This document shows positions 1 through 58,347 of a stretch of 64,000 nucleotides of DNA, piece by piece. The position numbers were made by a program, and so were the translations under genes. The notes beneath the pieces were generated by a model. The model saw only the letters and a list, made by a program, of their open reading frames with translations. It ran no database searches and had not been told where the DNA came from. Origin of the DNA: a virus. The first letter of the stretch is position 1, and each line of letters begins with the position of its first letter. Location: IMG/VR virus record IMGVR_UViG_3300038829_000269, positions 64,522-128,521 of that record; one strand, given 5' to 3'.

Positions 1-1427
1 GGGTCCAGGTTCATGTAGGTGTAGAAGGTCTGCTTGGAGATGAGGTTCGACTTCATCAACTCCTTCATCAGGCCCTTCATCTGCGCGTCGTCCTTCAGCT
101 TCATGAACTCGAACTCGATCTCGGGCACGATGTATTCGTCTCCGAACTCGGTCCGCTTCTTGAAGTCCTGGGCGATCGCCACCGGGCGGAAGATCGTCTC
201 CTTGATCCAGTCGATGAGCACCTGCTGGTTTCGGAGGTAGCGGTTGATCAGAATCTGCATCCCGATGCTGGCCGTCGCGAAGTTCGGGCCCGTGCCTCCG
301 ACCATCGCCTCGTTGCCCAGAAGCGCGGCGAGGATTTCCTCGCGCACCCACTTGGACTCGGACTCGAAGGCGTGAATCTTGCCCGCGCTGGAGACGTATT
401 CGGCGGAGATCGCGTGGTGATAGACGAACCACGCGCTCAGGTCCTGGCTCAGTTCGTCGAACGCCTCGCGCACCTGCTTGATCGCCTCGGGGTTCGCGGG
501 CATCTGGTCGGAGCCGACCTTGATCAGCTTGAGCGGCAGGATGTGGCGCTCGTAGACCGCCTGCTGCACGCGGCGGATCATGTCCTTCTGGATCAGGGGC
601 TTGAACGCGCGGAACATGATCGGGGTGCCGACCGTCTCGTAGGGGCTGAGCTTGAACGCGAGGTGGCTGACACGGAACTTGTTGAGCGGGATTTTCTCGC
701 CGCGCGCCACGAGGTTCACGAGTTCGCCGCCCTCGATCTTGGCCAACTGCTCGTAAAGCTCCTTGGGCTGGCGGCTGGCGACGATCCGCTTGAGGTTATC
801 GTCCGGGTCAAGCTTGAGCACGGGCTCGCCCGCGAGCGACGACTTCTCGACCTCGACGAAGTCGGGGTTCAGCAGGTTGAAGCCGGTCCAGATGCCACGA
901 CTGTCGTCCCACGATCCGAAAGGGAAGACGTTGGCGAGCTTCCACCACTCCAGGTTGATGTCCGAGAGCAGCTTCATGCCCTTGAGGATGTCGAAGAAAA
1001 GAATCTCGAAGAAGCGCTTGACCTTCTTGTCCTCGCACACGATGTTGATCCCGGTGAGCGGGAACTCAGAGTGCAGGTCGATCATCGTGCCGACGTAGCC
1101 GTCCGTCTTGTAGAAGTGGCGGCACCACTGGTTGATCTCCCGCGTCTTGGTCGGAAGCTGGAGGTTGATCGCCTCGAACAGCGGGTGATAGAACGACGGG
1201 GTCTGCCGGTGGAGGCCCGGCCGCATCCCGCTGAACCCGGAGGCCATCTTCTTCAGGCGCTCGCGCGGCATGTTCACGAGCGTGGAGCCGGGGCCCCCGT
1301 CGCGAACGCTGCTGGAGATGTTCTTCAGCATCTTGAACTCGGCGTCCAGGTTGGACGTGACGAGCGGCGACCCATTAGGGCCGAGGATGTTGCTCTGGAA
1401 GTTGTTTCCGTCTTTGGCATCAGCCAT
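1..1427 (-). CDS. Phage portal protein (3' end outside window)
   Basis: Manual translation from ATG at 1427, open to window edge (>475 codons): MADAKDG...FYHPLFEAINLQLPTKTREINQWCRHFYKTDGYVGTMIDLHSEFPL...GTPIMFRAFKPL; resembles portals of large myovirus-type phages; absent from ORF track because it has no stop in the window. Confidence 0.75.
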   Translation of the reverse strand, partial: MADAKDGNNFQSNILGPNGSPLVTSNLDAEFKMLKNISSSVRDGGPGSTLVNMPRERLKKMASGFSGMRPGLHRQTPSFYHPLFEAINLQLPTKTREINQWCRHFYKTDGYVGTMIDLHSEFPLTGINIVCEDKKVKRFFEILFFDILKGMKLLSDINLEWWKLANVFPFGSWDDSRGIWTGFNLLNPDFVEVEKSSLAGEPVLKLDPDDNLKRIVASRQPKELYEQLAKIEGGELVNLVARGEKIPLNKFRVSHLAFKLSPYETVGTPIMFRAFKPLIQKDMIRRVQQAVYERHILPLKLIKVGSDQMPANPEAIKQVREAFDELSQDLSAWFVYHHAISAEYVSSAGKIHAFESESKWVREEILAALLGNEAMVGGTGPNFATASIGMQILINRYLRNQQVLIDWIKETIFRPVAIAQDFKKRTEFGDEYIVPEIEFEFMKLKDDAQMKGLMKELMKSNLISKQTFYTYMNLD

Positions 1428-1433
1428 GTTTTT

Positions 1434-1846
1434 TTATCTCGCCTGCATGTCGTTGAACGTCTGGTTCGACTCGTTCGTCTGGCCCTCTTCGAGAGGATCG
1501 CTCTCCTTGAGGGCGTTCGGCATCGACGGCTCGACTAGAGTGCGACGCGCCTTCCACGCGGCAAAGATGCCGGAAGACGGAGAGCCGGTGTCCCCGGGTG
1601 AGTCGGTGCCGACGCCACGGAATTGTCCTTGGGCCGGACCGTCGAAGAACTCTGGCTCTTGGCCTTCAAGTCCCTGGTCGGGACGGAAGCGAACTTTTCG
1701 CGAAGGGCGCAGAGGCCCACGATGATCAGGGCCAGAATTTTCGTTCCGCTGGTCAACCGGCTGGTCGTATTCGACCGGCTGAAGGTTTTCAGGCCCACCG
1801 TCTCCTTTCTCGGAGTCGAAACCCCGCCCGTCTGCTCGGCGTTCAT
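1434..1846 (-). pseudogene. Small acidic head-region protein interrupted by an apparent -1 frameshift
   Basis: ATG at 1846 (TGATG coupling, GGAGG upstream) gives MNAEQTGG; the -1 frame from ~1822 reads GFDSEKGDGGPENLQPVEY...GIFAAWKARRT...DMQAR* to TAA at 1434 and has no start codon for its N-terminal ~125 codons. Confidence 0.45.
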
Positions 1847-4008
1847 CAAAGAGACCTCCCGGAGGAAGCGGCTTCCCGCGTCCCCCAGACCTCGCTGATC
1901 ACCTGACTCGGCGGCGCCGGGAGCTTGCGCGGGATTTCGTATCCCGCCGCCGCCCACGCGATCTGCCCGCTCTCGTCCATGGGCATGGCCACGGTCTCGC
2001 CCTTGGTCGGAAGACCCTGAGCGCTGTGCGCCGCCTCGTAGGCCTCGCCGTCGCGCGCCATCAGGATCACGCCCTGGAGGCCGAACGAGTTGGCGTTGCT
2101 CGACACGGTCACGACCTTGAACAGCTTCTTCTGGCCCTTGCCCTGGGGGAGCGGCGTCGGGTTGCTGGCCTGCTGGGCCTCGGGGTCGTGCTTCCCGCCG
2201 TCCTCGTGATCCATCCGCGAGTCGGACAGGCGCAGCGTGCCGATCAGGCTGGCGGTGGTCGCGGCCGGGAGCTTGGCGGGCTCCTTGTCCAGAGCCTCCT
2301 GCTGCGACTTCTGCTTCTCCTCGCGGCTCTTGCGGCGCTCTTCCTTCCGCTTCTTGTCCGACTCGATGCGGTCGTAGAGCGAGTTGATCGCCTCGTTCAG
2401 CGACTTGATCTTGGCCGGGTCCTTCTCGCCGCGCAGCTTCTCGCGCAGGTCCTTGATCTGGCGCTTCTCGCCCTTCGCGAGGTGCACCATCTCGTGGTCG
2501 CACGCGATCGCGACCTCGCCCTCGGCCAGGCCCATGGCCTTGCGGCCCCAGGCCTTCGCCTTGGCGAAGCTCACGCCGATCTCGATCCCGGTCCGCTTCT
2601 CGATCTCGGCCGCGACCTGGTGCGCGATCATCGGCATCTGGCGGCCGACCACCGGGTCCGTGAAGTAGGCGACGAGTTCGCTACCCAGTTCGACGGCCGT
2701 GTGCGCGGCGCTCGCCACGATCTCGGACGCGATGTGCAGGGCGGTCGGGCTCACCTGGCTCGCCTCCTGCTTCAGGCCGATCGTGTCCTTGAACGAGAGG
2801 CGCACGCGCTCGGGCTCCGAGCCCCAGGCGGGCATCCACATGATCATCTGCTGCGCGCGCGGCATCCAGTGCTCGACCGCCCCGCCCAAAGAGGCGTGGA
2901 TGCAGTGCTTGCACTTGTCGCGGTAGGTCTCGTGCGTCCAGTCGGACTCGAACCACACGCAGTCGCGGCACTTGTTCAGGTCCTTGTAGATCAGGTTGCC
3001 GGGCTCGGAATCGCCCGGGTCGCCGGACGCGGCGAACCGGCCCATGCGACCGCAGAGCTTGGCCTCCTCCATCATCGGGGCCATCGGCTCGTCCTTCTGC
3101 TGCTCGCCCTCGACCTGATCGGTCGGCGGCATCCCGGCGGGGGGCAGGCCCGGGACCGGCTCCTGCGCGCCGCCCATCATGTCGGAGACGTTCATCTCGG
3201 AGACGATGGCGCCGAGCAGCGACTCGACGAGGCACATCTTCATGTGGACGTGGCGCATGTCCTCGTAGCCGCCGTCCGCCTTCTTCTTGAGGCCGGACTG
3301 TCCCGCGATCGGCTCCATGGGCAGGGTCTCGGCGCCGGGCATCGGAGGCATGTCGGGCACGTCGCCGCTCACGTCCTCGGCGCCGGGCAGGCCCATCTCC
3401 ATGTCCATGGCCCCGCCGTCCGGGGCCGGGGCCATCTTCAGCTTCTCGACGTAGTGCTTCGCGTCGTTGAGCACGAGGAAGGCGTTCTCGATCGCCATGA
3501 CCTGGGGGATGGTCAGGGCCTGGACCTTCTGGCGAATCTGCGCGCAGGCGCCGCTCACCGCGTCGGCCTTCGACGCGATCTCGCTCGACAGGTCGGCGAG
3601 CAGCGAGTCGCCGCCCAACCCGTCTGGGCTCGACTGCGAACCGGCGACGCTGTCCTTCATCGAGGCCATGTCCGCCTCGATCCGGCTCAGGCGATCGGCG
3701 GCCTTCACGCGCTCGGACTGGCCGAGTTCACCCACCGCCTTCTGGAAGACTCCGGCGTAGCGGTCGAGCAGCGCCTTGTCCTCGGGGCCCGAGACCTTGG
3801 TCACGAGCGCGTCGGGGCGCACGGACCCGGCGGCGCGCGGCGTAGCGCCGTGCGTCTGGATCGCGTCGGAGAGGCGCTGCTCCTTCTGCTCGGCGGCCGA
3901 GGCCTGCCGAACGACGGGAGCCGAGAGACCGAGCTTGCCCGCGAGATTCGACCAGAAGTTGCTGGCCTTCTCGTCCTTGCCTTCGGGCGACTGGTAGGGG
4001 GTGATCAT
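1846..4008 (-). CDS. Modular putative head-internal/virion protein, 720 aa
   Basis: Start MITPYQ at 4008 with GAGGAGG RBS; RQAS/KKKA/RFAAS/KQEAS/TTAS/REAAS motifs, Cys cluster CRDC..CKHC, EKDPAK hairpin. Confidence 0.7.
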   Translation of the reverse strand: MITPYQSPEGKDEKASNFWSNLAGKLGLSAPVVRQASAAEQKEQRLSDAIQTHGATPRAAGSVRPDALVTKVSGPEDKALLDRYAGVFQKAVGELGQSERVKAADRLSRIEADMASMKDSVAGSQSSPDGLGGDSLLADLSSEIASKADAVSGACAQIRQKVQALTIPQVMAIENAFLVLNDAKHYVEKLKMAPAPDGGAMDMEMGLPGAEDVSGDVPDMPPMPGAETLPMEPIAGQSGLKKKADGGYEDMRHVHMKMCLVESLLGAIVSEMNVSDMMGGAQEPVPGLPPAGMPPTDQVEGEQQKDEPMAPMMEEAKLCGRMGRFAASGDPGDSEPGNLIYKDLNKCRDCVWFESDWTHETYRDKCKHCIHASLGGAVEHWMPRAQQMIMWMPAWGSEPERVRLSFKDTIGLKQEASQVSPTALHIASEIVASAAHTAVELGSELVAYFTDPVVGRQMPMIAHQVAAEIEKRTGIEIGVSFAKAKAWGRKAMGLAEGEVAIACDHEMVHLAKGEKRQIKDLREKLRGEKDPAKIKSLNEAINSLYDRIESDKKRKEERRKSREEKQKSQQEALDKEPAKLPAATTASLIGTLRLSDSRMDHEDGGKHDPEAQQASNPTPLPQGKGQKKLFKVVTVSSNANSFGLQGVILMARDGEAYEAAHSAQGLPTKGETVAMPMDESGQIAWAAAGYEIPRKLPAPPSQVISEVWGTREAASSGRSL

Positions 4009-4021
4009 TGGTGCGTCCTCC

Positions 4022-5869
4022 TCATGGAACGTATATCGGGCTGCCACCGGCGTCTCCGCCGACGCTTCTCTCTGCGAACTCGCCGGGCAGCGCGAGGCCA
4101 GCCTGGTCGTCCGTTTTCCGAAAGTCAACCTTCCCTTCGTTGTAATCCTCGACCGACAACCAGTCGTGGCGCGCGTGCGGCGACTGCTGACCGGAGGGGC
4201 GGACCACGTTGGTCTGCCCCGGGAAATTGGTGGGCGCGGACGCGAGCTTCATCGGGCGCGCGCCGCTCACGACGCACACGAGGTCCAGGGCCATGGCCGC
4301 CGCGTTCACTCGGTCGATCCACTTCGTGGCCAGCGTCACGACCTGGCCGATCTCGATCGACTCGTTGAGCCCTTCCTTCGCGTTGACCACGGCCTGGAGC
4401 GCGACGGTCAGCGCCTGGTCCAGCGGGATGGCCATCGACGTGATCTCGGCCGCGATCTGGTGAAGCTCCTGGACGTAGTGCGAGTGGCGCAGCGTCTTGC
4501 CCTCGTCCATCATCTCAGCGAACTCCTCGGACACCTTGACGAAGCGCTTGTCCACGATCTCGCCCGCCTCGTCCAGGTCGCGCAGCGCCTGGTTGTCCGT
4601 CTCTTTAAGGAGGGCCTGGAACTTCTCGTCCAGCCCCTTGCCCGCCTCGATCGCGCGGACCAGATCGTGGAGCACGGCCTGGGCCTCGACCTTCGTCAGT
4701 TCGCGGGGCCCGGCCAAGCGCAGCGCCCAGGACCAGCGCTTCGCGTAGGTCTGGCGCACCGCCGACAGCAGGTCGTGGTCATCGGCCGCCGCGAAGAACA
4801 GCGAGATCGCGCGCATGTCGTTGAGGTCAAACTGTTGAACGAGGCGCCAGAAGAGGTCGCGGACCGCGCGGTCCCCCGAATCCATTCCGGCGCTGGACAG
4901 CGCGTCGTGCAGGCGGTCGGCGTAATTGGTCTCCTGGTTCACGGCGTCGAGTGCCGACGCCCGATACTTCAGCTTCTGCTCGATCTCGTCCTGGTCGCGG
5001 CTGATCGACTCGTGCTGAGCCTTGACCTTCTCGTCGAAGATCACGACCTGGTTCTTGCCCGTGTTCTTGCCCACGACCAGCGCGTAGTGCGCCTCGATCG
5101 GGCGATGGCCGACGCCGATCGTCACCGTGTGCTTGGTCACGCGCTCGTGAATCTCCGAGATCGTCTTGAACACATCGGGATCGTTCGCCATGAAGAAAAG
5201 CATGTTGTCGCCGCCGTCGAAGATCAGGCGGCCACCGGCGCTCGACACCAGCTTGCGAATCGCGCGGTGCGCGTCGTGGATCGAGTTGCTGATCTTGGCC
5301 GCGATCTCTGGGTCGTCGGAGAGCAGAGAGTCCTCGACCAGGTGGCCCATGTCGTCGCCGTCCATCCCGACGTAGACCATGTCCTGGGGCTCGACCAACT
5401 GCTCCATCGTCTTCTCGGGCTGCGGCTCGTGATCGTCCGCGTGCCCGATCCCCGCCGCCTCGCGATCGGTCGGCGGCGTGAAGTTCTTGTCATACCACGC
5501 GCGGTCGTAGATCGGCGAGCGCTCGCTGACCCCGGACTGGCGCTGAACGGCCTTGTCCACGACGTATTGGGCCACGAACTTGTTCAGCGTCTCGATCAGG
5601 GTTTCTTTCGTGTCCGACTCGCTGACGTTGTTCGCGATCCGGTGCGTCAGCCAGTGGGTCCCGGACGAGACCTCGCGCGCGGTCAGGTCCAGGCCGCTCC
5701 GCATGAGGATGGCCTTCACCTGATCCTTCAACTGGGCGAAGGTCACGCCCGTGTTGAACATCGGCTGGTCCGGCGCCTGCTCGGGAAAAAGCGCGGCCTT
5801 CAGCAGACCGGCGACGAGCCAGTCCGGCTGCTGGTTGAGGCGCGTGCTGCTCTTCCCGTTTTCGATCAT
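4022..5869 (-). CDS. Modular putative virion protein with mCpol-like nucleotide cyclase domain, 615 aa
   Basis: Start MIENGK at 5869 overlapping upstream TGA; VYVGMDGDDMG...FDGGDNMLF...TVTIGVG...AHYALVVGKNTGKNQV at ~5035-5380 matches the mCpol pattern. Confidence 0.75.
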   Translation of the reverse strand: MIENGKSSTRLNQQPDWLVAGLLKAALFPEQAPDQPMFNTGVTFAQLKDQVKAILMRSGLDLTAREVSSGTHWLTHRIANNVSESDTKETLIETLNKFVAQYVVDKAVQRQSGVSERSPIYDRAWYDKNFTPPTDREAAGIGHADDHEPQPEKTMEQLVEPQDMVYVGMDGDDMGHLVEDSLLSDDPEIAAKISNSIHDAHRAIRKLVSSAGGRLIFDGGDNMLFFMANDPDVFKTISEIHERVTKHTVTIGVGHRPIEAHYALVVGKNTGKNQVVIFDEKVKAQHESISRDQDEIEQKLKYRASALDAVNQETNYADRLHDALSSAGMDSGDRAVRDLFWRLVQQFDLNDMRAISLFFAAADDHDLLSAVRQTYAKRWSWALRLAGPRELTKVEAQAVLHDLVRAIEAGKGLDEKFQALLKETDNQALRDLDEAGEIVDKRFVKVSEEFAEMMDEGKTLRHSHYVQELHQIAAEITSMAIPLDQALTVALQAVVNAKEGLNESIEIGQVVTLATKWIDRVNAAAMALDLVCVVSGARPMKLASAPTNFPGQTNVVRPSGQQSPHARHDWLSVEDYNEGKVDFRKTDDQAGLALPGEFAERSVGGDAGGSPIYVP

Positions 5870-8800
5870 CAGATGTTCTGGTTCGGAGTGTTGCCGAACT
5901 GGTGCGGCCCGCCCTCTCCGTGGGTCTCGGACGACTGACCGGCCGTCGACTTCGGGACGACGGCGCCCGACGGCAGCTTGACCAGGTTCTCGACCGCCGT
6001 GTTCCAGAGCGTGCACCAGTCGTGCGTCGGGTGCACCTCACCGGCGGGCGCGTAGTGCCCGGCCTTCTCGCACCACTCGCGGATGTCGAGGCCCGATCCG
6101 GTCTGGCTCGCCTTGTCCTTCACCGCGTCGGGAGCCGCGCTGGGCAGCGCCTCGGCCTTCTTCATGGTCGAGACGTTGACCTTCTTCTCGTCGGCCTTCG
6201 TCTGGTCGGAGGCCGGGGCCTTCGACTCGACCTTCTGCGGGATGTCCTTGACGATCGGGTCGTAGCCCACGCAGTCGCGGAAGTAGGCGGCGAGGAATCC
6301 GACGCCCTCGCGCTTCTCAGCGCCGCAGAACGGGAGCCGCGTGTGCTTGAACTCCCGGAGCGGCGAGTAGCCGACGGGGACGACCAGGCTCTTGCAGTTC
6401 TTGCACACCTCGGGGAACTTCAGGCTCTGGGACGAGAGCTTCTTGAACGTGCCCATGAAGTCCTTGACCTGCTCCTGGTTGTTCGGGTCCAGGCCCATGG
6501 TCACCATCTGGTTCTTGGCCTCGGGGTCCATATCGTAGGCGCTCGCCGACTTGCCGAACGCGCAGGACTCGGAGCAGTAGGTCTTTCCGCCCTTGGCCAC
6601 GATCGTCTCGCCGATCTCCTTTCCGCAGTTCGGGTTGGCGCACTTCTCTTTCGCCTTGGCCGCCTGCTTCTCGTTCAGATCGGTGTCCTCGATCTTCGCG
6701 CCCTTGTCCTTCATGTCCAGCGCCTGCTCCAGGGCCTCGCGCGTCATCTTCGGGGCGACCCCGGCCAGACCCTTGCCCTTCTCGGGCATGAGCGTGGAAC
6801 CCGAGTTGTCGGGCGCCTGCGTGGTCTCGGCCGGGACATCGGCGGGCTTCACGCCGGGCTCGGCGGCGAGGTCGGCGGGCGCGCCCGCCATCTCCTCGGT
6901 CTTCCCCGCCTTCGCCTTCTCCTGGAACGCGCTGATCTTGTCGTAGAGAAGCTGGAGGTCGGTGTAGTCGATCCCCATGTGCGGCGCGTTCCCGTTCTTG
7001 ATGTTGTTCATCTCGCGCTGGTGAACGGTCTGCCACTCGTTGTTGTATTGGTCCATCAGCGCCTGGAACTCGCGGAACGCGATCGGGTCCAGACCGGCGG
7101 GCGGCGCGATCTGCGGCGTGCCCATATCCGCGCTCGGCGCGGCGGCCGGGGCGGCCGGAGCGGCGGGCTGCGCGCCTTCCGGGGTCTGATCGGCGTTCGC
7201 GCCGGGAAGCAGCGTCTCGGGCGCGGGCGCGGCGGGCGGCGCGGCGAGGCGCGTGCGCTGCGCGTGCGCCAGGCGGTAGCCCAGGTTGCTGACCTCGGTT
7301 CCCGCCGTGCGGAAGAGGACGATCCCGGCCTTCGCCAGTTCCTTGGACGCGGACTCGAAGGATAGGTCAGACTGCTGGCCGTGCTGCTTGGACATGAGCA
7401 CGAGGTCGCGGAACGAGATCATCCGCTGGTCGAGCATGTTCAGCGAGTCGATGACCTTGGACAGGCCCGCGATCTTGACCACGCCCTTGGCCGCCGACTC
7501 GTAGCTGCCGAGCCCCTTGCCCTCATCCTCCAGCGACGGGGAATCGGGGTGCAGACCCGCGTCGTCGCGCGGCACGCCGGGGACCGTGTTCCCGTAGGCG
7601 TCGGACCGAGACGAGTTGGCGGGCTGGATCAGGCCCTGGTCAAGAAGCTGCTTGGCGCCGCGACCGTAGGAGCCCTGAAGCTGCCAGGCGAGGCCGGTGT
7701 CCACCAGATACTGGAAGAGTTCGATCGTCCCGGCCTCGTCCAGTTCGCCGCCCTCGAACGCCATGATCGCGCCGACGTGATCGTAGGCCTGCTTGCCTTT
7801 GGGCGCTGGATCGTGCTTGCCCTTGCCCGCTTCCAGGACGCGGACCGAAGTGGCGAAGCGCAGTTTGGCGCCCGCCCGGCCCTTCAGCGCGTTGGCCACG
7901 CGCTCCACCATCTTGCCGCCGTCCCAGATTTCCACGACGTAGTCGTGGCCGCCGTAGGTGATCGTGCGCGCGAGGTCCGTAGCGCTCTTCAGGTCGAGGC
8001 CCTTGGCCGTGGACCGGATCGAGCCGTCCCAGTTGATCTCACGGACCTCGGCCGACGCGAGCGTCGCGTGGCTGGAGGTCTGGTCGCCGGACGGGTAGCC
8101 GGTGTTCGACTCGGAGTTGACGCCCGTGTTCGTCGTGCTGGACATCGTGCCGGGCTCGCGGCGCTCCGCGCCCTTCGGGTTTTTGGCCTGGAGGGGGGAG
8201 ATCGGGGCGGCGATCTGCGCCGCCTCCTTGGAGATGGAGCGCACGAGGCCCTGGCGCGCGATCGTCGGCTTCTCGCCGGACGCCTGGCGCGTCATGTCGG
8301 GGGACGCCTTGCGGAACAGGAGCGGGCCGTCCTTGGCCGCGACCGCGCCGCCCATCCCGTCGGGGGCGTGGAAGTCGGGGGTCGTATACTTGATCTCGGG
8401 CACGACCTTCGGCTGCATCACGACCTCGAAGTCCTGGCCCTGGAACATCTCCTTGAGCCCGGACATGTTGAAGGCGTAGATGTTGTTCATCCCGTCGGTG
8501 AACGTCTTGGGCTCCATCAGCCCGCCGAGCACGAGGTCCACGGCCGCGTAGATCGTGCGCGGATCGCCCTGCGGACCGTAGAACGGAATTTGGAAGGCCA
8601 CTCGACCCGTCTGGGGCTGACCGGTGTGGTCGTCCCAACGGCTGATGTCGGCCTTCATATAGTGGATGCGCGATCCGCTGATCGTCATCGCGCCGAGCTT
8701 CTTCTCCAGCATCTGGCGCGCGCGGCCCACGACCTCGCTGATCTGACGCTCGCGGTCCTGGCCCGCGACCTGCGCGATGTCGCGCGAGCCGCCCTGACCT

Positions 8801-9000
8801 TGGTCGATGCGCGACACGCTCTCCGCCTGCTTCGAGGCGAAGGGGGTCGTGCGCTCGGGAGCCGACGCGGTCTTGACCTGAGCGCGCTTGGCGATCAGGC
8901 TCTCACCGGCGGCGACGACGCGGCTGACCATGTCGGCGGCCCACCCGGAGCGGGCGGCCTTGGCCTTCGCGGCCTTCTCTGCGATGTCCTTTTCGTTCAT
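5869..9000 (-). CDS. Large modular putative head-internal protein, 1043 aa
   Basis: Start MNEKDIA at 9000 with AAGGAG RBS; many KTAS/KQAE/RKAS/RQAS/KEAA/RTAG/KQAA/KKAE motifs; Cys-rich Zn modules; [20 protein letters not shown] module. Confidence 0.7.
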
Positions 9001-9014
9001 GGTAGTCGATCTCC

Positions 9015-9932
9015 TTAGTCGTGGCCCTGGCAAAACTTCGGGTTGCCGTCCGTGTTTTCCTTCATCGGCTTGTGGCAGGTCGGGCACTTCTCCGCCGCGT
9101 GCTGGACCAAATCGTCTTCCGAGACCGTGATCAGCGCCTGGGCCTTCTTCATGAAGATGCGGCAGCCGCAGTCGTCGCACACGTCCCCGTCGTGACCATG
9201 GCCGCACGATCCGCAGGCGGCCGACGCCTTCTTCTTATTGTGGACGGACCAGGCGACGGCCCACGGATTGTCCACGCTCACGTCGTGCTTGAGGCTCTTG
9301 ACCAGCTTCTCTTCGCCGGGGGGCGCGACCGCGATGCGCTGCACCGGCGGCTGCATCCGCTTCAGGAACTGGTCCTCGTTCTCGGTCGAGCGCTGGTTTC
9401 CGAACAGGTCGCACTGGCGGTTGCCGCACAACTTGAGGTCGGGGCGCTCGTCGCGATACATCTGCTTCGGGAGCTTGCACGAGGGGCAGGACTCGTCGAG
9501 CGCCGCCTGCTTCATCACGCCCTCGCCCTTGCACGCGGAGCACGGCTGCTGGCTGTGGGTAGACTCCGGGTCGCTCCCGCTGCCCTTGCAGCGCGAGCAC
9601 TTGTTGGCGGACGCCGAGCGGCGCATAACCTCGCCCTCGGTGTTCACTTGCTTGACCAGGAACTGGGAGCCGTCGGCCGCCTTCTCGATCGACCAGATCG
9701 AGCCCAGGCCACCGTCGATGTCCTCGGCGCGGTAGAGGCCCCAGCCCATGGGCTTGGCCAGGCGCATGAACCCGGCGGCCTCCGCCTCCTTCAGCGGGAT
9801 GCGGTCGGGCATCGGCACGACCTCGATCTCGCCGAGCGCGGCGCTCGCGGTCTTGACCATCTCGGAGCCAGCGCTCCTCACCTTGAGGCCGACGCTCTCG
9901 GCCAAGCCCTTCCAGAAGTTGGGTCCCATCAT
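9015..9932 (-). CDS. Putative head-associated protein with Zn-finger modules
   Basis: 305 aa; KTASA, KQAAL, RIAVA, KKASA, KKAQA motifs separate CxxC modules and a DNPWAVAWS module. Confidence 0.65.
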
Positions 9933-19659: not shown

Positions 19660-21342
19660 CTAGCGGAACTGGTTCTTGATGATGAGGAACGGTAGCTTCC
19701 CGATGTTGGGACGCCGCTGACCGAAAATCGCGGGACCGAGCTTCGCCGCGCGCACCGCGAGCACGTCGGCGCAGCACACGTCGTCGTGGTCCGACTCCGG
19801 CGCCTGGATGCGCCGGTTGATCCCGAACCCGATGATCTCCTGCTCCAGAGCCGTCCACTGACGCACGCCCTTCTGGTAGTCCATCATCAGGTCCATGGGC
19901 GTGTTCGAGTCGACGCACGGGTAGCGCAGCCAGCCCATCTGCAACTGGCGCTTGAAGTCCATGAACATAGAGGTCTTCATGTTCATCGACGCGCCGACGA
20001 TCAGTTTGTCGCTCGCGCCGAAGTTCACGGTCTGGGCCGGGAACCCCTCGTTCGCCAGTTCCGGGATGATAGCCGCGCCGTTCCCGCCGAAGTCACCGAG
20101 GATCAGGCGCGGCGAGTGGAACGGGCCCTGCTTGGAGAAGAGGTTGGTCAACTCGCGCTTCTGGTCGGGCGACGGCATGTCGGACCAGGTGCAGCCGAAG
20201 ACCTTGATCAGGATCGGTCCGTAGCGCTTCCACACGGCGACCGCCGTCTCGTCCGCTCCCGTCCCGGTCGCGAAGTCGATGCCGACGTAGAACTCCTCGT
20301 CCATCGCCATCTGGCGCGTCTGGTGCGGCATCGAGCCGCTGGTGAGGATCGCCTTCTCGCGCGCGTCGAGGAACAGGCCGAACTGCTCCAGCCACCGAAG
20401 CTCGTATTGGGTCAGGAAGTCGTTCAACTCCTGCTGCCCCGGGTAATAGAAGTCCGACGTGTGCGGGAAGATTCCCGCGCGGATGTAGGTCTCCTTCTGC
20501 GCGAGCGGCATCATGTCGAGCACGAACTTGCTGATCCGGCGCCCGTTGTGCTCCAGGTAGCCCTCGCGCAGGAGGTTGTCGCAGATCAGCCAGTGGTGCC
20601 AGGTCTTGATCGCCTTCGCGTCGTTGTGCCAGGTGTTGAAAAAGTGGTTGCGGATCGGGCGCACGGTCCCGATCTTGCTGATCTTGGCGCCGGTCGCGCC
20701 ACCCATCGGCAGGATGCCCTGGGACACGACCACGTCGCTGATCTTCTGGCCCTCTTCCAGGATGATCCGGTTCAGGGTCTTACCGTCGTTCTCCGCCTGC
20801 TCGGACGCCGAGTAGGTCCTGATCTCGCAGCCGTTGTGCCACACGATCCTGTCGGTCGTCGTCTGCTCCCAGTTGATGAGCGCGCGGCCCTGCTTGGTGC
20901 AGCGCGCCCAGGCTTTCAACCGATCGGTGTCCAACTGGGCCTGCGCCGCCTTCGGCGCGAAGATGCCGATCCGGTATGGCTCGGCGTGGTGCTTGTTCCA
21001 CTCGGGGCCCTCAACCTCGCAGTTGATCGCGCAGGCGACGGCCACCGACGAGGTCTTTCCGACCTGGCGAGGCTCGACCGTGATCGTGGTGCGCGCCTGC
21101 GCGGTTAGCGCCCCGACTATGTCCACCTGGTTTGAGCACAGCACCTGGTTGAAGTAGTAGTTCGTGAACCGCTGCGGGTCGATAAACTCCTGGGCGACGA
21201 CCGACGGAGCGATCACATCGTGCTCGATGTGCGCCTCAGGCGGTTCAGGAAGCGGAGTCGAGGCCATGGCGCTGAACGCCATCGCCAGGTCGACGACTAC
21301 CGATCCACTTCCGGCGTCCAATGGCCGTGCTGGTGTTTCCAT
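19660..21342 (-). CDS. terL: Terminase large subunit
   Basis: Walker A EPRQVGKTS, Walker B IILEEG, RNase-H-like VGIDFATG and C-terminal HDDVCCADVLA. Confidence 0.92.
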   Translation of the reverse strand: METPARPLDAGSGSVVVDLAMAFSAMASTPLPEPPEAHIEHDVIAPSVVAQEFIDPQRFTNYYFNQVLCSNQVDIVGALTAQARTTITVEPRQVGKTSSVAVACAINCEVEGPEWNKHHAEPYRIGIFAPKAAQAQLDTDRLKAWARCTKQGRALINWEQTTTDRIVWHNGCEIRTYSASEQAENDGKTLNRIILEEGQKISDVVVSQGILPMGGATGAKISKIGTVRPIRNHFFNTWHNDAKAIKTWHHWLICDNLLREGYLEHNGRRISKFVLDMMPLAQKETYIRAGIFPHTSDFYYPGQQELNDFLTQYELRWLEQFGLFLDAREKAILTSGSMPHQTRQMAMDEEFYVGIDFATGTGADETAVAVWKRYGPILIKVFGCTWSDMPSPDQKRELTNLFSKQGPFHSPRLILGDFGGNGAAIIPELANEGFPAQTVNFGASDKLIVGASMNMKTSMFMDFKRQLQMGWLRYPCVDSNTPMDLMMDYQKGVRQWTALEQEIIGFGINRRIQAPESDHDDVCCADVLAVRAAKLGPAIFGQRRPNIGKLPFLIIKNQFR

Positions 21343-31114: not shown

Positions 31115-34100
31115 TCACAGTCGGCACCTGCCACACCAGCCCCGCTCGCCGGGTTTCTTCCCCGGCCATTCGTGAGAACACTCTTGGACCGCGCCCGGCG
31201 ACCTCTGCTCGTGGATCGCCGTCGTCTCACCGGCCCGACGCCGCCAAATATCCTTGATCCCGGCGCTCAGCGATCGGATGCGCTGCTCGATCTGCTGCTT
31301 CTTCGCCGGGTCCTGCTCCAAAGCCAGTTGGTCGAGGAGCGAGTCGATCTTCGACTGCACGTCGCCCTGGTTCATGGTCGGAACGTGCTCGACGCTCGTT
31401 GGCTCCGGGTCCTTGAGCAAGGAGAACTCGGCGGTCCCACCGTCGAACCGGATCACGCCGCGATCGAGCATCTGGCCGATCACCTGCTGCACCATGTCCG
31501 CGAACGGCCGGTCGAAATCCGCGACCTCTCCGTTTTCATCGAGCATCACGCCCTTACCCTCTCCGATCAACTCGCTCAGGTCGCGCGAGATCGTGGACGG
31601 CCCCTTGCGGAGCAGGTCGACGATGTGGTTCTCGATCATCTTGGGGTTGGACGGGATCGACTGCTCTGGGACCTGGCCCACGACGCCGCCGCTCACGACG
31701 AAGCGCAGGTCGTCGGCGCGCACCACGCCAGAGCCGCGCGTCGGGAGCCCGGCGCCCGCCTTGCCCTTCGGCGGCCAGAACGTGATCTTCAGGAGTTCGG
31801 GCGAGCCGCCGTGGTTCAGCCGGAACTTCTTGAGAACCTTGACCGTGGTGCCCTTCGGCAGCACGAAGCTATCGACGTGATCGCCCTGGCCCTTGGACGC
31901 GCGCTCCCAGACCCGCAGGTCGTCGGTCAGCACCATCTGAGAACCAGGATCGTCGACCATCGCGGCCGTCTTCTCCTTCACGCGCTGGCTCTTGGGCACG
32001 AGCTTCAGAAACTCGTCCCACGACATCTTCTTGATCCCGCCGAAGTGGGCCTTCTCCATGTGCTCCAGGTAGCTGGCCTTGGCCTCGGCCTCGGACGAGT
32101 AGCCGAGCATGATCTTGTCCTCGTCGTATTCCCCGGTCTTCTTGTCGAGTTGGGTGACGACGAACGCGAGGTCGGAGTCCCGATCGGGACCCGCGTAAAC
32201 GTCGATCTCCTCACCGTCCTCGCCCTCGGTCTGCCGGATGTAGCCGTAGTCGGCCTTCATCAGCTTCTCGTAATCATTGCCCGGCAGGTGCTTCCACGTC
32301 CGGGTGCTGCCCTTCGGCCACTCGATGCCGACCTTCACCCCGTTGATCTCGATGATCTTCTTCAGCGGGTCGTTGGCCTGGCGCATGACCCAGCGCTCGA
32401 ACATCGAGCCCATCTTGTAGTCGGGGTTGATCGGCGTGCGGCCGACGCCAGGCTTCTTCACGCCGACCAGGGCCGGGATCGAGTCCATGCCAAGGACCAT
32501 GGCCTGCGCGGTGCGATGGTTCCCGTCCATGACCCAGAGCACGCCGTCGTCGCCCCTGATCACGACCACGGGGTTCGCCTCGATCTCTCGACGCTGCGCG
32601 CGCGCGCCGCCCTTGAGCCGTGGCTCGCCCATGTCGGCGAGGTAGTCGGCCGACTCCTCGTCGAGCCACTGCTTGGTGTCCTCGATCGGGTCCTTTCCGA
32701 AATTGGTGTCGCGCGGGTTGATCCTGGTCAGCGTCCAGACGAAGTCCGTGACCTTCTGCGCGATGCCGCTGCCCGCGATCTCGTCCTCGTTGATCTGGCC
32801 GAGGACCTGGTGAATGAGCGCGGCCTGATCGTCACCGGCGCGCCGGTGCCAGCGGCTGAGCAACGAAGAGGAAATCTGCTTCATGCGGCGGCGCAGCGTC
32901 TTCTCGTCGATCTCTCCCCGGTTAAACTTGTCGAGCAGGCTGTCCTTGGTCTCGGTCGGCACGTCCTTGAGCGTCATGGTCCCGGGCTTGCGGCAGTCGA
33001 TCGAGTGGCCGTCGCCGGGACACTCGCGGCTCCCGCAGGTGGGGCAACGGCGCGTGGACATGTCGTCGTTCGCCATGCACTCGTCGCAGAAGCACTCGGG
33101 GCCGTGCTTGTATCCCGTCCCCTCGCCGTAGCCGATGTCGGTCGCGGCGCGGAACTCCTGGACCGGCGCGGAATACTGGTTGGTCTTCATCACCCGGCCG
33201 CGCACGATGATCTTGGAGTAGATCGGGCTGTAGAAGAAAATCGTGTGGTCGTTGCTGTGCGGCTGGACGCCGACCACGGCGCCCTTCGGCAGCACGGCCT
33301 CGTTCTCGGTCCCGGAGTCGGAGCCGATCGCGGTGCACCGAAGTTCCCTGAGCAGCTTCTGCTCGCTGTTCGCGGCGCGCCGCTCGCGCCACTTCTGGGT
33401 GAGCGAGTTCAGGTGCAGGTTCTCGGGACCGCCGCCGCCCCACTCGATGATCAAGGACGAGAGCCTGGCCTTCGCCTCGTCCATGGTCATGCCCATGTCC
33501 TTGTGCAGGACCACGGCCATGTTCATCAGGAGGTCGGCGGCCTGCTGCGGGCTCATGAGGTCGGCGCGCTGCTGCTCGAACATCGAGAACGCCGCCTGCT
33601 TGAGCCGGTCTTCGCCCCCGGGCTCCTGGAGCTTCTGGTTCGCCTCGTCCCGGCCGTAGCCGAAATAGTCGAGCGCGCGCTCGATGTCCGGGTAGAGCGA
33701 GATGTTCTGCGACTCGCGGATGTTCGCGTTCGGCTCGATCTTCATCGCGGCGTAGGTGTAGAGCCGCCCCACGAGTTCGGTGAACTGCTGTCCGACGGCC
33801 GCGTCGTGGATGATCCGATCGTCGGTCCTGAGCTTGAGCCACTGGTCGATGTCCTTCGTCGGCATCATGACCGGGACCTCTTGGCCCCGGTAGGTGATGG
33901 TCCCGATCTGGGTCTCGGCCTGAGCAGCGCGACGCGCGCGCCACGCGGCGACCAGCGGGTGGCGGACCATGTCGTCGGGCCCCTGCGTGCGATCGCGCTC
34001 GAAGCCCTGATCCTTGTAGAGGTTCTTGAGCGCGGGCTTCGGAATCCTGGGCTCGCCCGTGGGCTTCGCGTGCAGGTCGAGCGGCACGCCGTATTCGTCG

Positions 34101-37100
34101 GCGAGCGCCGTGAGCCAGGCCAGGCACTCGCGCGCCCGGCCCTTGCGCGGGTCCATCGACTGGAGCCATTTGAGCGTGATGATCCACGGATACTCGGGAT
34201 CGGGGCCGCCGCGCCACGGGTGAACCTCGACGATCACGCTGTCGTTCCACACGCGCTGGCCCCTGGTGAACGGGTGCCCGGCCGTCTGGTCGTAGACCGC
34301 CTGCATGAACGCCTGAATCTGGTCGGGCCACGGGGCGTTGAACGGCCCGCTGGCCGGGTCCGCGCCCTCGGCCCGGCGCGAGAACCACCTGGCGAGCAGC
34401 GACGCGGTCGGCATCTGCCCGCTGGGGTTGGCGCGCGCCGTCTCCTCGTCCGCCAACTCGTCCATCGACGGATAGCGCGGGTCGCCCACGTTTGTGATCA
34501 GGTAGTCCGGCGCCCCGAACTGGGAGTGGGTGATGTCGATCACCTTCCCGTCCAACTGGAGCCAGTCGTGAGACCAAAGGTTCCCGTTCGCGTCGCGATA
34601 ATAGGAGGAGATGTGCTCCGGCTCCATCTCGGCGGCGAACAGGTGGTCGGCCAGCGCCTCGCTGTCCCCGGTGCAGTCGAGACCGCCAGCCCAGTCCTCG
34701 GCCACCCTCCCGTCCCAGTAGGCTTTCATCAGCTTCTCGACCAGCGCCCAATCCGTCCCGCCAGCCCGACGCTGATTCCAAGAGGAGAGGAGGCTCTGCC
34801 GTTCCCCGCCGGTATTTTTTTGGAGCACGAGCAAAACCTGCTCCGGCGTCGGGATGCGCTCCCAGTCCTGGACCACGTTCCCGGCCTGATCCGTCCGGCG
34901 CCCCGAACGCGGGAAGCTCGGGTCGATCTGGATCATCGCCTGCCAGATCGTGCCGAACCCGGAGATGATGATCGACTGGATGTCGTCCCACGAGTCGGTG
35001 GTCGGGTTCTGGAGGAAATTGAGAATCCGCTTCCTGATCTCTGGCGAGAGCGGACCGAACATGTTCCGAGCCTTGTCCAGCGCGGGACCGAGGTCGCGCA
35101 TCGGCCGGGCGGCCACCTTTTCCAACCAAATGGAGAGAAGCGGCCTCTGCCGTTCTCCGGCCCTGAAAAAATTCGAGGTGCTGCTCGCGGTCAGGCCCAT
35201 GATGTTCCCGGACATCGGATGATCCCAGGGCTCGGACTGCGGGAGGAGGAAGGCGTCCACGACCCCGCCCGTGATCTCCGCGACCTTGGCCCGGAACGCC
35301 TGGTTCGCCTCGGACATCAGCGCGTTCCCGGAATGGAAGACCACCACGTCGAGATCGGAGTCGTCGCGCGCGTCGCCCTTCCATCGCGACCCGGTCAGAT
35401 GCACGCTCGTGATCTGGTGATCGCGATGCTCGCGCGCCCCGCTCTTGGTGAACGCGGTCCACAGGTCGCCGATCAGCATCTGGGGATCGGAGAATCCGGC
35501 TTGGGCCAGGACCTCGACCGGCGAGCGCTTCACGACCACCTTCTCCTTCTTCTTGCTCGTGGGGTCGTAGGCGTCGCCGCGTCGAGTCCAAGCCTCGCTG
35601 CTCGAATCCCAGAAGCCGGACTCGTCCTGGTGGCGCTCGTCGATCTCCCCAAGGTAGGTGAACTTCCGGTAGCAGCGGCCATCGCCCATCGGGTTGTAGC
35701 ACTCGCCCTTGGACGGGGCCCACGAGCACTTCTTGCAGTAGCTCATGATCGCGCCGAGATGGTTCGTGGTCTCGGCCTGGACGTGGCCGCACACCGTGCA
35801 CTGGTAGCGGCGCCAGGTGTTCTTCACGATCTCGGGGTCCGGCGCCCAAAGCTGATCCTTCTCCGCGCGGCGCACGAGGAACAAGGCGCGCAGCGCGCGC
35901 AGCGACTTCAACTGCTGCTCGATCTGGGGACGGGCCCCGGGCTCCGACTGCCACCGCTCCAGCAGCGCGTCGACCTTCTGCTGGCGATCGCCCTCGCTCA
36001 TCGTGTTCACCTGGCTCAGATCGGTGGGCGCCACGGGCTTCATCCCCCACTGGTTGCGCGCCTCGTTGAACTCGATCTCGCCATCGCGCTCCAGGCGGTT
36101 GAGCGCGTATTCGTAGACCGTGACGAAGTTCGCGTCGTAGGGCCAGCGCGAGGACTCGACGGCCTTCATCCCGAGTTCGTCAGGGGTCAACGGCGACTTT
36201 CGGAGTTCGTTCGCGATGAACGAGATCAGGCGACCGGCCTCCTGGTTGAAAGCCTGGGGCGGAACCGGGTTTGCGTCCGGCACCTTCTTCTGAGCGGCGC
36301 CCACGCCCCCGTTCTTGCGCCGGTCGTGGATCAAAATCCAATCGGTTCCCTTGCTAATCTTGTCGATCACGTTCTCGTCGATCAGGTCCTTGATCGCGCG
36401 CGCAAACGGGCCCCAGGACGAGAGGTCCGCACCCTTGATCTGGTTGAAAAGCTCGTGGGCCTTGATCCTGAACTGGTTGGTCGACGGCTCGTCGCGGCGC
36501 TTGAACTCGACCCAGTCGAGGATCGCTTGGCGGAAGGGGTCGGCCGCCGCCGCGCGCGAGAGCCACCGCGCCCTGAGCGTCGCGAGCCGGATCACAAGAT
36601 CGTTGCCCGAGTCGAAGCGCCGCATCTCGCCCTCGTGCTCCTGGATCAGGCCGTCGCTAAGCATCCGGTTGAGGAGCGAGCGCATCCCGGGCTCGGTGTC
36701 CTCCATCACCAGGTGATCGTGCTCCTGGAGCGCGGCCAAGATCAGTTTCTGCATCAAGCCCTGCTGGCGATAGGCGGGGTCGGTCGCGGCGAGCCCCGCC
36801 GTGTTCCCCGTGATCAGCAGGTAGCTGAACATGCCCTTGGGCAGCGGAGAGTCCCAGTTCCCGGTCGCATAGAAATTTTGGTCGGCCGACTGCGGGTCGA
36901 AATCGGGCGTGACCAGCGCCCAGAGTTCGCCGTCGTCCACCGGCCAGTGGCGGACGTTCGGCGTCTGGTGCTCATCATTCTGCTGCGTCGCGCTCTTCTC
37001 GCCGAGCGCGCGCTCGTCGTCCTTCTTCAGTTCCTGGACCTCGTCCTCGATCCGGTCGAAGCGCTTCAGGTCCTCGCGCACATGGGACTTGGGCAGTTCG

Positions 37101-56977: not shown

Positions 56978-57249
56978 CGGAGCTTGGCCTCCACGAGCTT
57001 GACCCAGTCGCCCAGCGTCTTCGCGTTCTCGGACTCCTCGTCGCCAATCTGCCGGTCGATCTCTTCCTCGACCCACATGCAGAACTCGACCTTGTCCAAT
57101 TCGTCCATCCCGATCTTGGTGTCGAGCACCGCGTCGATCGGAAGCTCGTCGACCTCCTCCTGCGTCAGACCGATGGTCTCGCGCAGGCCGCGCTTCACCA
57201 GGTCCAGCGTCTCTTCCTTCTTCGGCGTCTCCGTCTTGGCCTCAGCCAT
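56974..57249 (-). CDS. Acyl-carrier-protein homolog lacking the phosphopantetheine Ser
   Basis: IGMDELDKVEFCMWVEEEIDRQIGDEESENAKTLGDWVKLV aligns to ACP GxDSLDxVELxMxxEEEFxxxIxDEExE..TVGD; Ser position is GAA (Glu) at 57100-57102. Confidence 0.75.
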   Translation of the reverse strand: MAEAKTETPKKEETLDLVKRGLRETIGLTQEEVDELPIDAVLDTKIGMDELDKVEFCMWVEEEIDRQIGDEESENAKTLGDWVKLVEAKLR

Positions 57250-57850
57250 TCCATCCTCCGCGCTTCTTGTGCTCCCAGCCCGTGGCCGGGGAAATCATGT
57301 CGACGGACACCCACCGCTCTTCGCCCGCCTTGTCGCCGGACTGCCGCTCGATCTTGATCGACTGGCGATCGGCCGCGATCTCGGTGATCCACCAGGCGCT
57401 GTCCGAGTCAGGGCCCTGCGTGGTCTCCCACAGGTCGCCGATCCGCAGGCAGACCGGGTGGCTGTTGAACACCTCGATCGTCTCGTAAAGCTCCTTCTGC
57501 TTCCACTCGGGGACCGGCGCCAGGCCCATGACGACCCAGCCCTCGGTCACCACGTTCTCGACTTCGGCCCGGTTCGTCGACGGCTGCGCGCCGCCCGTGA
57601 AGATGTAGGTCACCTGCTTGAACATCTCCCGGCCGTAGTTGTCGCCGTCCGGGTGGTAGTCGATGAGCAGCAGGAAGTCGCCGATCCTGAAGTCACGGTC
57701 GTTGAACCGGACCTCGAACGTCTTGAACCCGGCGAGCACCGCGTCGTAGAAATGGGTGAGCGTCTTGAGCCTGTGCATCTTGTGGCTGCGCCCCGGCAGC
57801 GGCATGATCGCGAGCGGCGGGAGCATCGTCTGCGTGTGCATGTGGTGCAT
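57242..57850 (-). CDS. DUF3850/ASCH-like domain protein with extra C-terminal domain
   Basis: HRLKTLTHFYDAVLAGFKTFEVRFNDRDFRIGDFLLL. Confidence 0.75.
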   Translation of the reverse strand: MHHMHTQTMLPPLAIMPLPGRSHKMHRLKTLTHFYDAVLAGFKTFEVRFNDRDFRIGDFLLLIDYHPDGDNYGREMFKQVTYIFTGGAQPSTNRAEVENVVTEGWVVMGLAPVPEWKQKELYETIEVFNSHPVCLRIGDLWETTQGPDSDSAWWITEIAADRQSIKIERQSGDKAGEERWVSVDMISPATGWEHKKRGGWNG

Positions 57851-58347
57851 CAGTCTCTCCAGATTTCCATCAGATTCGGCTCGCGGTCGGGCAGGTGCTT
57901 CTCCGCGATCGGCGCCACCTCGTTGATCAACTCGCGCAGCGCGTCGAGGCCGCGCTCGTTCATCTGCCCAGTGGTCTCGTTCGTGCGCCTGAACGCCATG
58001 TCCCTAATCCCCTCTGCTTCGAGCATCGTGACCGGGCCGCTCTGGTTCAGGTGGATGCGCGCGATCGCGTAGTTGTCGACCTGGTCCGTGTGCTCGTTCA
58101 TCACCTGCATCCTGGGCGTGCGCCGCTCATCCTCGGTTGCCGCACGCTGGCTGGTGATCACGCCCAGCACGTTCACCCGGTTGAACTCCGAGGCCTGCTC
58201 CGACATCGTCCGAACGTCGAGCGTGTAGTAGACGCCGTTCCAGACCACGGAGGCGCGCGCCATGTGCGACACCCGGAAGGGTGCAGCCGTGTCGCTGCCG
58301 ACCGTGAAGCTGTTGTAGGCGCCGACGCGCTCTGACATTCTAGGCAC
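57850..58347 (-). CDS. Hypothetical protein with C-terminal EPNLMEIWRD tag
   Basis: 165 aa. Confidence 0.6.
   Translation of the reverse strand: MPRMSERVGAYNSFTVGSDTAAPFRVSHMARASVVWNGVYYTLDVRTMSEQASEFNRVNVLGVITSQRAATEDERRTPRMQVMNEHTDQVDNYAIARIHLNQSGPVTMLEAEGIRDMAFRRTNETTGQMNERGLDALRELINEVAPIAEKHLPDREPNLMEIWRD

Follow-up and report, generated by a model that had tools for sequence, protein, structure and literature searches.

An mCpol cyclase domain in a late-region protein of a groundwater phage, a candidate for delivery with the virion

Introduction

In the Panoptes defence of bacteria, a guard kills the cell once phage sponges or nucleases have removed a nucleotide that is made constitutively; the synthase of that nucleotide is mCpol, known from experiments since 2025. 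In the Panoptes literature of 2025-2026 mCpol is a bacterial enzyme only, and its partners are S-2TMbeta, CARF-TM, SAVED-TM or HEPN proteins (PMC12657218, PMC12657230, PMC13577387). Here we report an mCpol domain in a protein encoded by a phage. The protein, of 615 amino acids (aa) and called the mCpol protein below, is encoded within a 64,000-nucleotide stretch of DNA (the window), which covers bases 64522-128521 of the IMG/VR record IMGVR_UViG_3300038829_000269 (139,276 bp). What is new here is the occurrence of a known enzyme family in a viral, virion-module setting, and its link to the theme of phage polyvalent proteins.

The Panoptes synthase OptS offers a direct comparison. In the enzyme KpOptS, Asp6 and Asp57 bind metals and are required for activity, and position 30 bears on base choice, where Ser favours adenine and Asn moves the product towards cyclic GMP-AMP (cGAMP). 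In OptS, one protomer grips the triphosphate of a given substrate and another protomer its base (PMC12657218).

Polyvalent proteins of phages, including those bearing GGDEF and InPase domains, were argued by Iyer et al. 2017 to be packaged and injected toolkits, and their nucleotide enzymes were explained there as a means to disturb the nucleotide signalling of the host or to act on rival elements (PMC5512222). The term mCpol has 0 occurrences in that paper (PMC5512222). A survey of jumbo phages lists phosphodiesterases, and not mCpol, as counter-nucleotide tools. We found no mention of a phage-encoded mCpol in the Panoptes studies and review or in the polyvalent-protein and jumbo-phage surveys, a set that lies apart from Burroughs et al. 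2015, where mCpol was defined. A literature search for "anti-Panoptes" gave no match, and the words polyvalent, portal, MuF and InPase are absent from the accessible part of the Panoptes supplement.

Results

The phage protein contains an mCpol domain with an intact predicted active site

A preliminary description of the window, made from the sequence alone, had noted an mCpol-like unit with both acidic motifs at 5035-5380. The Pfam profile PF18182 matched residues 167-279 of the protein over profile positions 1-114 of 114 (E 1.7e-21, 77.2 bits, cut-off 26.4), which places the domain at 5036-5374 with the DGD and GGDN motifs both present. A match of this strength is well outside what chance would give. 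A weaker Pfam match was to Cas10/Cmr2 palm 2. The six-frame search of the whole record returned a single mCpol copy, at 80.2 bits. The peptide quoted in the preliminary description sits in a minus-strand open reading frame (ORF) at 4022..6016, with the true start codon (ATG) at 5869-5867. The 615-aa product is identical to database entry P0002; residues are numbered here as in P0001, which is longer by one residue at its start. Confidence in the AlphaFold2 (AF2) models is given as the predicted local distance difference test score (pLDDT). The gene and the parts of its product are as follows.

4022..5869, minus strand: gene of the mCpol carrier, 615 aa, by ORF and translation; stop codon at 4022-4024
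5483..5800, minus strand: N-terminal helical domain, residues ~25-130; family-specific, AF2 pLDDT mostly >90
5381..5482, minus strand: predicted disordered acidic linker, residues 131-164, which holds REAAG; pLDDT <50 for 131-160
5450-5464, minus strand: REAAG, residues 137-141, inside the predicted disordered linker
5036..5374, minus strand: mCpol palm domain, residues 167-279 (about 165-280 in the model), by PF18182, OptS alignment and fold
5354..5362, minus strand: DGD motif, D171-G172-D173; D171 pairs with Asp6, a catalytic residue of KpOptS
5288..5290, minus strand: Ser195, at the nucleobase-recognition position Ser30 of KpOptS by alignment offset
5204..5215, minus strand: GGDN motif, residues 220-223; D222 pairs with Asp57, a catalytic residue of KpOptS, where the motif reads AAD
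4955..4972, minus strand: LKYRAS motif, residues 301-306, in the helix after the palm (281-312), where model confidence dips
4253..4936, minus strand: C-terminal all-helical domain, residues 313-540 (confident about 317-535), with a long four-helix bundle at its end, by AF2 models
4025..4252, minus strand: predicted disordered but conserved C-terminal tail, residues 541-616 (...HDWLS.EDYN...GGD.GG.PIYVP); pLDDT <55

The domain aligned without gaps to KpOptS (9mnr_A, E 3.6e-12) and to the mCpol structure 9nwn, with pairwise identities of 30-33%. The offset to KpOptS is 165 residues, which pairs D171 with Asp6, D222 with Asp57 and S195 with Ser30. In the AlphaFold2 model, which was built from 42 sequences, the palm domain has pLDDT >90, and Foldseek gave template-modelling (TM) scores of 0.81-0.83 against OptS over 115 columns. 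VIA superposed it on OptS with Z 17.7 and a root-mean-square deviation (rmsd) of 1.8 Å over 116/119 residues at 33% identity, whereas the palms of GGDEF, Cas10, GTP cyclohydrolase III and class III cyclase reached a Z of only ~12-14. The profile and structure searches against mCpol and OptS that the preliminary description had proposed thus agree with it, from the full-profile match to the superposition, and the modelled fold is that of a palm-domain cyclase. The GGDN motif is nearer to the Cas10 and GGDEF signatures than is the AADG of OptS. Judged by sequence and model, this is a genuine mCpol whose active site appears intact.

The mCpol protein is probably an active, adenine-using enzyme, and the invariant Ser195 suggests the use of ATP. 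Since the triphosphate and the base of one OptS substrate are held by different protomers, the phage protein would have to oligomerise. The mCpol has no attached sensor domain, which fits a constitutive activity.

The domain is embedded, occupying residues 167-279 of a 615-aa protein, unlike the stand-alone "minimal" mCpol of ~120-130 residues. The non-catalytic parts had no Pfam match, even at E<=10. When the C-terminal domain was folded alone, the structural matches were generic long helical bundles only, the best at Z 10.3 where ~13 is advised for helical proteins; no atlas model reached TM 0.5 for this domain, and the language-model atlas gave nothing for residues 310-616. A Cas10/Cmr2 lead for residues 1-135 was dropped, as its language-model atlas scores of 0.81-0.87 were below the useful range and Pfam at E<=10 gave no Cas10-related match. 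The protein has no transmembrane segment, the best 19-residue hydropathy being 1.28.

The cyclase is the most conserved part of the carrier

A word-indexed search found 18 relatives, mostly of 608-639 aa, with identities from 70% down to 27%. When 1.84 billion representatives were searched exhaustively, 630 of the matches contained mCpol, and only nine were at E<1e-30. Invariant in the alignment of the 18 members were DGD, G176, V179/E180, S195, I198, F218, GGDN, T246, H248 and G253/G255, along with GKNxGK (268-273) and K302/Y303/A305. Expressed as mean pairwise identity among 14 full-length family members, conservation is highest in the mCpol domain (0.71), followed by the N-terminal domain and the helix carrying LKYRA (0.52 each), the tail (0.48), the C-terminal helical domain (0.42) and the linker, which is lowest (0.29). 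Selection therefore appears strongest on the enzyme.

The motifs of the tail are retained in relatives down to 27% overall identity, and also in the short variants P0020, P0021, P0054 and P0055. Two of these bear on the tie between carrier and enzyme. P0020 (320 aa, L021:1341-3525) has kept the N-terminal domain and the tail and has lost the cyclase and most of the helical domain; it occupies the same genomic position as the mCpol gene, and a TnpB/IS605 gene is inserted just upstream. In P0055 (L022:75-941, on a 1.3-kb contig), DFS and DSME replace the acidic motifs and the C-terminal tail is kept, so that it looks like a catalytically dead mCpol carrier.

Such variants would suit a mainly structural head or ejection protein, in which the cyclase domain is a relic or its fold has been reused for nucleotide or DNA binding. 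The make-up of the mCpol protein, which is mostly helical or disordered like many internal and ejection proteins, would suit it as well. We regard this explanation as very improbable, given that the cyclase domain is the most conserved part of the protein (0.71 versus 0.42-0.52) and that the catalytic and substrate-contact residues are all invariant in the 18 aligned members.

Described phages gave no relative. Neither the DNA of the gene, nor its whole product, nor the isolated domain (E<=1) had a match among 50,697 GenBank phage records at BLAST sensitivity, and PHROGs holds no family for the mCpol protein. A scan of genome contigs gave two weak, unrelated mCpol matches only and no clue to the host.

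The gene lies in the head-morphogenesis region

In order of transcription, the late region encodes a 2322-aa InPase protein, a protein resembling head-decoration proteins, proteins of 1848 aa (beta-propeller) and 585 aa, and the large terminase. Several small genes, a 918-aa protein, an unannotated stretch and proteins of 302, 166, 459 and 305 aa come next, followed by the 1112-aa protein, the mCpol protein, a 721-aa protein, a small gene and the portal. Beyond the portal are a 261-aa protein, the prohead protease, proteins of 973 and 182 aa and the major capsid protein. The genes on which the comparison turns are listed here.

1..1427, minus strand: portal, running off the left end of the window, 568 aa in the record; phrog_16240 E 1.4e-44, Portal_Mu E 1e-5
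1846..4011, minus strand: downstream neighbour of 721 aa, no known family, position kept in relatives
5869..9207, minus strand: upstream neighbour of 1112 aa, multi-module, with a DUF7417 / phrog_3908 module at residues 480-533 (~470-530)
19660..21342, minus strand: large terminase subunit (TerL), at the upstream edge of the block; phrog_2 E 1.6e-14
31115..38083, minus strand: polyvalent-type protein of 2322 aa; polyvalent-class InPase PF18823 E 7.1e-36 (1908-2027)

The portal gene thus lies two genes downstream of the mCpol gene, which bears out its earlier placing near the portal. The ATG of the mCpol gene shares one base with the TGA that closes the upstream 1112-aa ORF (TGATG), and the gene downstream begins ~10 nt past the mCpol stop. 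The mCpol gene is translationally coupled to its large neighbours.

The local order recurs in three lineages, namely L002 (mCpol protein 34% identical), L004 (68%) and a third. In each, a large protein is followed by the mCpol protein, a 630-920-aa protein, small genes and the portal gene, and Portal_Mu matches the portal gene in L002 and L004. In the third lineage, represented by the contig of P0017, the gene in the portal position encodes 937 aa with faint Hint, intein-splicing and LAGLIDADG matches, which suggests an intein in its portal gene.

In phage records from Streptomyces (65) and Rhodococcus (5), the DUF7417 module of the upstream neighbour is a small gene of its own, and in some of those phages it adjoins an Ocr-like anti-restriction gene. 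Because this module stands alone elsewhere, the 1112-aa neighbour looks like a string of small effector modules. The 2322-aa protein shows, besides InPase, a weak Pol-beta nucleotidyltransferase signature (NTP_transf_2, E 1.5e-4 at 889-922), and its PHROG matches to minor head and DarB-like proteins are confined to the InPase region; it is likely an injected polyvalent protein. The 1848-aa late protein (window 23414-28960, minus strand) carries beta-propeller repeats of the Vgb_lyase and SGL types (E 4e-16).

About 120 ORFs of the phage were scanned with Pfam, a few large tail-region proteins being compared with PHROGs only or left out of the scan. CARF, SAVED, S-2TMbeta, PilZ and cNMP-binding families were found in none of the ~120 ORFs scanned. 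The preliminary description had stated that no cognate effector adjoins the gene, and the neighbours indeed have no such domains.

Related mCpol domains occur in polyvalent proteins

Outside the family, the closest mCpol domains are often inside large multi-domain proteins whose architecture, by Pfam, is polyvalent. Five such proteins are given here.

P0023: mCpol and InPase
P0029, 1992 aa: ATP-dependent DNA ligase, mCpol, GGDEF, LigD PrimPol, sigma-70 region 2 and LigD phosphoesterase
P0050: ART-PolyVal, DUF5661, GNAT and mCpol
P0125: DUF5661, mCpol and SAM lyase
P0060: mCpol and a PI3/4-kinase-like domain

The gene of P0029 (L018:10001-15979; the same protein at L013:7712-13690) is on a 110-kb viral contig that is also in IMG/VR, and it is flanked by capsid and minor-head genes and a tail sheath gene. 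Two different palm cyclases, mCpol and GGDEF, are present on this one polypeptide. The only families that co-occur with mCpol in the 87 nearest representatives are of this polyvalent kind (DUF5661, GGDEF, NUDIX, InPase, LigD and ART-PolyVal), and among the same 87 no CARF, SAVED or HEPN family co-occurs. A motif LKY[RK]A, located ~80-105 residues past GGD, marks an mCpol subfamily whatever the remaining architecture; it follows mCpol in P0019, P0021, P0022, P0023, P0024, P0027, P0028 and P0030, of which P0023 is polyvalent.

These relatives bear on where the mCpol protein would act. It could be a late cytoplasmic enzyme that is never packaged, which silences guards until assembly ends or times lysis or assembly by a nucleotide signal. 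Co-transcription with late genes is all that is shown; Pfam revealed no head anchor and no shared targeting signal was found, and structural operons do contain non-virion enzymes. Against it, the position by large unannotated proteins upstream of a portal-sized gene is kept in three lineages, the carrier domains and tail are conserved even where the cyclase is gone, which suggests a structural attachment, and the nearest mCpol domains belong to polyvalent proteins predicted to be injected. On balance, we consider an unpackaged enzyme rather unlikely.

The pairing of GGDEF with mCpol in P0029 bears on the purpose of the product. The nucleotide could be an agonist for competition between elements, activating a host effector for cyclic oligoadenylate (cOA) or cyclic dinucleotide (CDN), or a second-messenger pathway, in superinfection exclusion or host remodelling. 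Iyer et al. offered the same alternative for polyvalent GGDEF domains (PMC5512222), and fold matches indicate stand-alone GGDEF cyclases in Bacillus phages G and SP-15. This seems improbable to us: the phage ORFs scanned revealed no responsive effector family, and to switch on abortive infection at entry would be costly to a phage.

The proposed cleavage sites do not bound the domain

The preliminary description had also set the mCpol unit between two boundaries, REAA/G and YRAS/A. Neither abuts the domain, since REAAG ends 25 residues before the mCpol unit and LKYRAS lies ~22 residues beyond the Pfam domain. Across 143 ORFs there are 3 REAA and 3 YRA[SDEG], about chance frequency. REAA is kept only in close relatives, and LKYRA belongs to the extension of the domain that marks the subfamily, so that this part of the earlier account is not supported. 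Lying in a linker predicted to be disordered, REAAG would be accessible to a protease; LKYRA, which is kept in unrelated architectures, could equally well serve the enzyme or its oligomerisation or mark a module boundary.

As candidate protease sites the two were rejected on the same chance frequency, and the broader pattern [KR]xA[ASGE] is not enriched in the mCpol protein (z 0.6). Scores for this pattern are relative to shuffled sequences and could be inflated by low-complexity linkers; they are 4.8 for the 305-aa protein (window 9015-9932), 4.4 for the 2322-aa protein, 4.2 for the prohead protease (L005:16944-17990), 3.4 for the 973-aa protein (L005:13706-16627), 2.6 for the 1112-aa protein, 0.5 for the 721-aa protein, 0.1 for the 918-aa protein, -0.4 for the portal, -0.8 for the major capsid protein and -1.3 for TerL. 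In the prohead protease and the 973-aa, 305-aa and 2322-aa proteins, the pattern is 2-5 times commoner than in the shuffles. This enrichment would be compatible with a processing code.

General features of the phage

The phage is of ~140 kb and 65% G+C; within the window, G+C is 62-71% and the minus strand carries nearly all genes. Baseplate_J, a sheath initiator and a gp5 C-terminal domain assign it to the myoviruses. IMG/VR classes the record as a provirus with a completeness of 79%; the label notwithstanding, neither an integrase nor a host flank was seen in the record, at whose ends are SNF2 and other helicases and phage genes. A search of sequencing runs traced the DNA to a groundwater metagenome; aquatic, watershed and soil runs matched in part, and no RNA run was among the matches.

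In the early and replication region (window 38000-64000 and L008) are genes for ThyX, an SbcC-like ATPase, an MmcB-like nuclease and a DUF3850 (ASCH-like) protein, together with two R2K-clade ATP-grasp domains. The major capsid protein (L005:12092-12970, minus strand; record 57091-57969) is 62% identical to gp27 of Bacillus phage G, a 497-kb, low-GC phage and in this unlike the phage described here. An Acidobacteria phage and Mycobacterium cluster C phages are among the remoter relatives.

Discussion

We propose that a competent mCpol-type cyclase, borne on a phage carrier, is loaded into the head and tampers with nucleotide signalling of the host; as a whole, we hold this to be as probable as its contrary. 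The carrier would consist of the N-terminal helical domain, a floppy linker, mCpol, the LKYRA helix, the helical domain with its four-helix bundle and the disordered tail. Transcribed together with the head-morphogenesis genes, it would be made late, enter the head and pass into the next host alongside the DNA, as has been proposed for polyvalent proteins. In the new host, or at a late stage in the cell that made it, the protein would form oligomers and turn ATP into a cyclic di- or oligo-adenylate, which may disturb nucleotide-based signalling of the host. The most attractive target would be a guard effector of the Panoptes type that is repressed by its ligand, or else a cOA or CDN receptor that becomes jammed. 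InPase, by removing pyrophosphate, would pull the cyclase reaction; such a drive is suggested by the recurrence of InPase with mCpol, fused in P0023 and encoded in the same late region here.

For packaging in the virion, the arguments on the two sides are evenly balanced. In its favour we count the position between TerL and the portal, the coupling to the neighbouring genes, the polyvalent mCpol relatives, the 2322-aa InPase protein and the persistence of the carrier where the enzyme is gone.

Several points weigh against the proposal. The preliminary description had spoken of virion cargo encoded between head-cargo genes; the place in the head-morphogenesis block stands, and Pfam and PHROG searches of the mCpol protein found no MuF, portal fusion or other head-anchor domain, nor did profile searches find a targeting motif common to it and its neighbours. 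The family-specific N-terminal domain and the conserved tail might take the place of such an anchor. A targeting signal shared with neighbouring cargo was dropped as a candidate, since four parts of the protein (N-terminal domain, LKYRA helix, C-terminal helical domain and tail) had no second copy in the phage by profile search. Searches of the GenBank phages revealed no cultured relative with a virion proteome. With one recognisable catalytic domain, mCpol, the protein is not itself polyvalent. P0020, which has no cyclase, and P0055, in which it is degenerate, indicate that the carrier can persist without cyclase activity, and the nucleotide product of the phage enzyme is a prediction from sequence. 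For a phage known from a groundwater metagenome only, the presence of Panoptes, CBASS (cyclic oligonucleotide-based antiphage signalling system) or type III CRISPR in the hosts would be an assumption. Finally, no sponge or nuclease family was recognised by Pfam among the phage ORFs scanned, which counts against an anti-Panoptes role, since the logic of that role presupposes that the phage depletes the signal.

A role of some kind against nucleotide-based immunity is possible, and we hold it tentatively, with doubt the stronger. That the role is specifically anti-Panoptes is unlikely. In its fullest form, the idea is that mCpol ejected from the head supplies the "all clear" cyclic adenylate of guards (Panoptes types I/II, Panoptoo-like) and so frees the phage to use sponges or nucleases against CBASS and type III systems; this too we would not expect to be true, and a guard effector kept closed by the phage product, the most economical idea of a target, is speculative. 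Flooding of CBASS or type III receptors, which the preliminary description had proposed as well, would be sensible only with an antagonist product, because an agonist would activate abortive infection.

Phages, then, took up a Panoptes-type enzyme, constrain its active site strongly and place mCpol in virion-module and polyvalent proteins. Should it prove active and be delivered, the enzyme would be a directly testable candidate for a phage answer to Panoptes-type guards, or for viral manipulation of cyclic nucleotides by synthesis. If the proposal is true, it would define a new class of counter-defence by signal synthesis, and a widespread one, as the mCpol module recurs in several unrelated phage lineages. 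Phage mCpol proteins are compact, effector-free variants useful for biochemistry, and the association of mCpol with InPase hints at how the reaction may be driven.

The phage domain shares with Panoptes OptS (KpOptS, PDB 9mnr and 9pd0; mCpol, 9nwn) the domain family, the fold, the catalytic Asp pair and the base-recognition Ser. It differs in setting, being encoded in a phage head module and not in a bacterial defence locus, which typically stands beside CBASS in a defence island. It differs in build as well, with a 615-aa carrier in place of a stand-alone protein of ~125 aa, GGDN in place of AADG and an LKY[RK]A helix after the palm, and it has no OptE, S-2TMbeta, CARF-TM or SAVED-TM partner.

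The polyvalent proteins of phages likewise have a nucleotide-signal palm enzyme (GGDEF), or RelA/SpoT, and InPase modules in virion-module proteins (PMC5512222). The mCpol protein is also encoded in a virion and packaging module, but it has a single catalytic domain, and no MuF or portal anchor was found in it.

DarB and DarA of phage P1, the internal proteins of T4 and Alt are loaded into the head, are co-injected with the DNA and act before phage gene expression. Some of these packaged proteins depend for their loading on the prohead protease and on short signals for targeting or processing. They block restriction or modify host proteins and are not known to make a signalling nucleotide; what they share with the mCpol carrier is the concept, with no known relationship of sequence or fold. 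NARP1/2, by which phages reconstitute NAD+, are not known to be virion-borne, and their chemistry and enzymes are unrelated to mCpol. Their logic is that of the anti-Panoptes proposal, a counter-defence that works by re-synthesis of a depleted small molecule and not by its destruction or sequestration.

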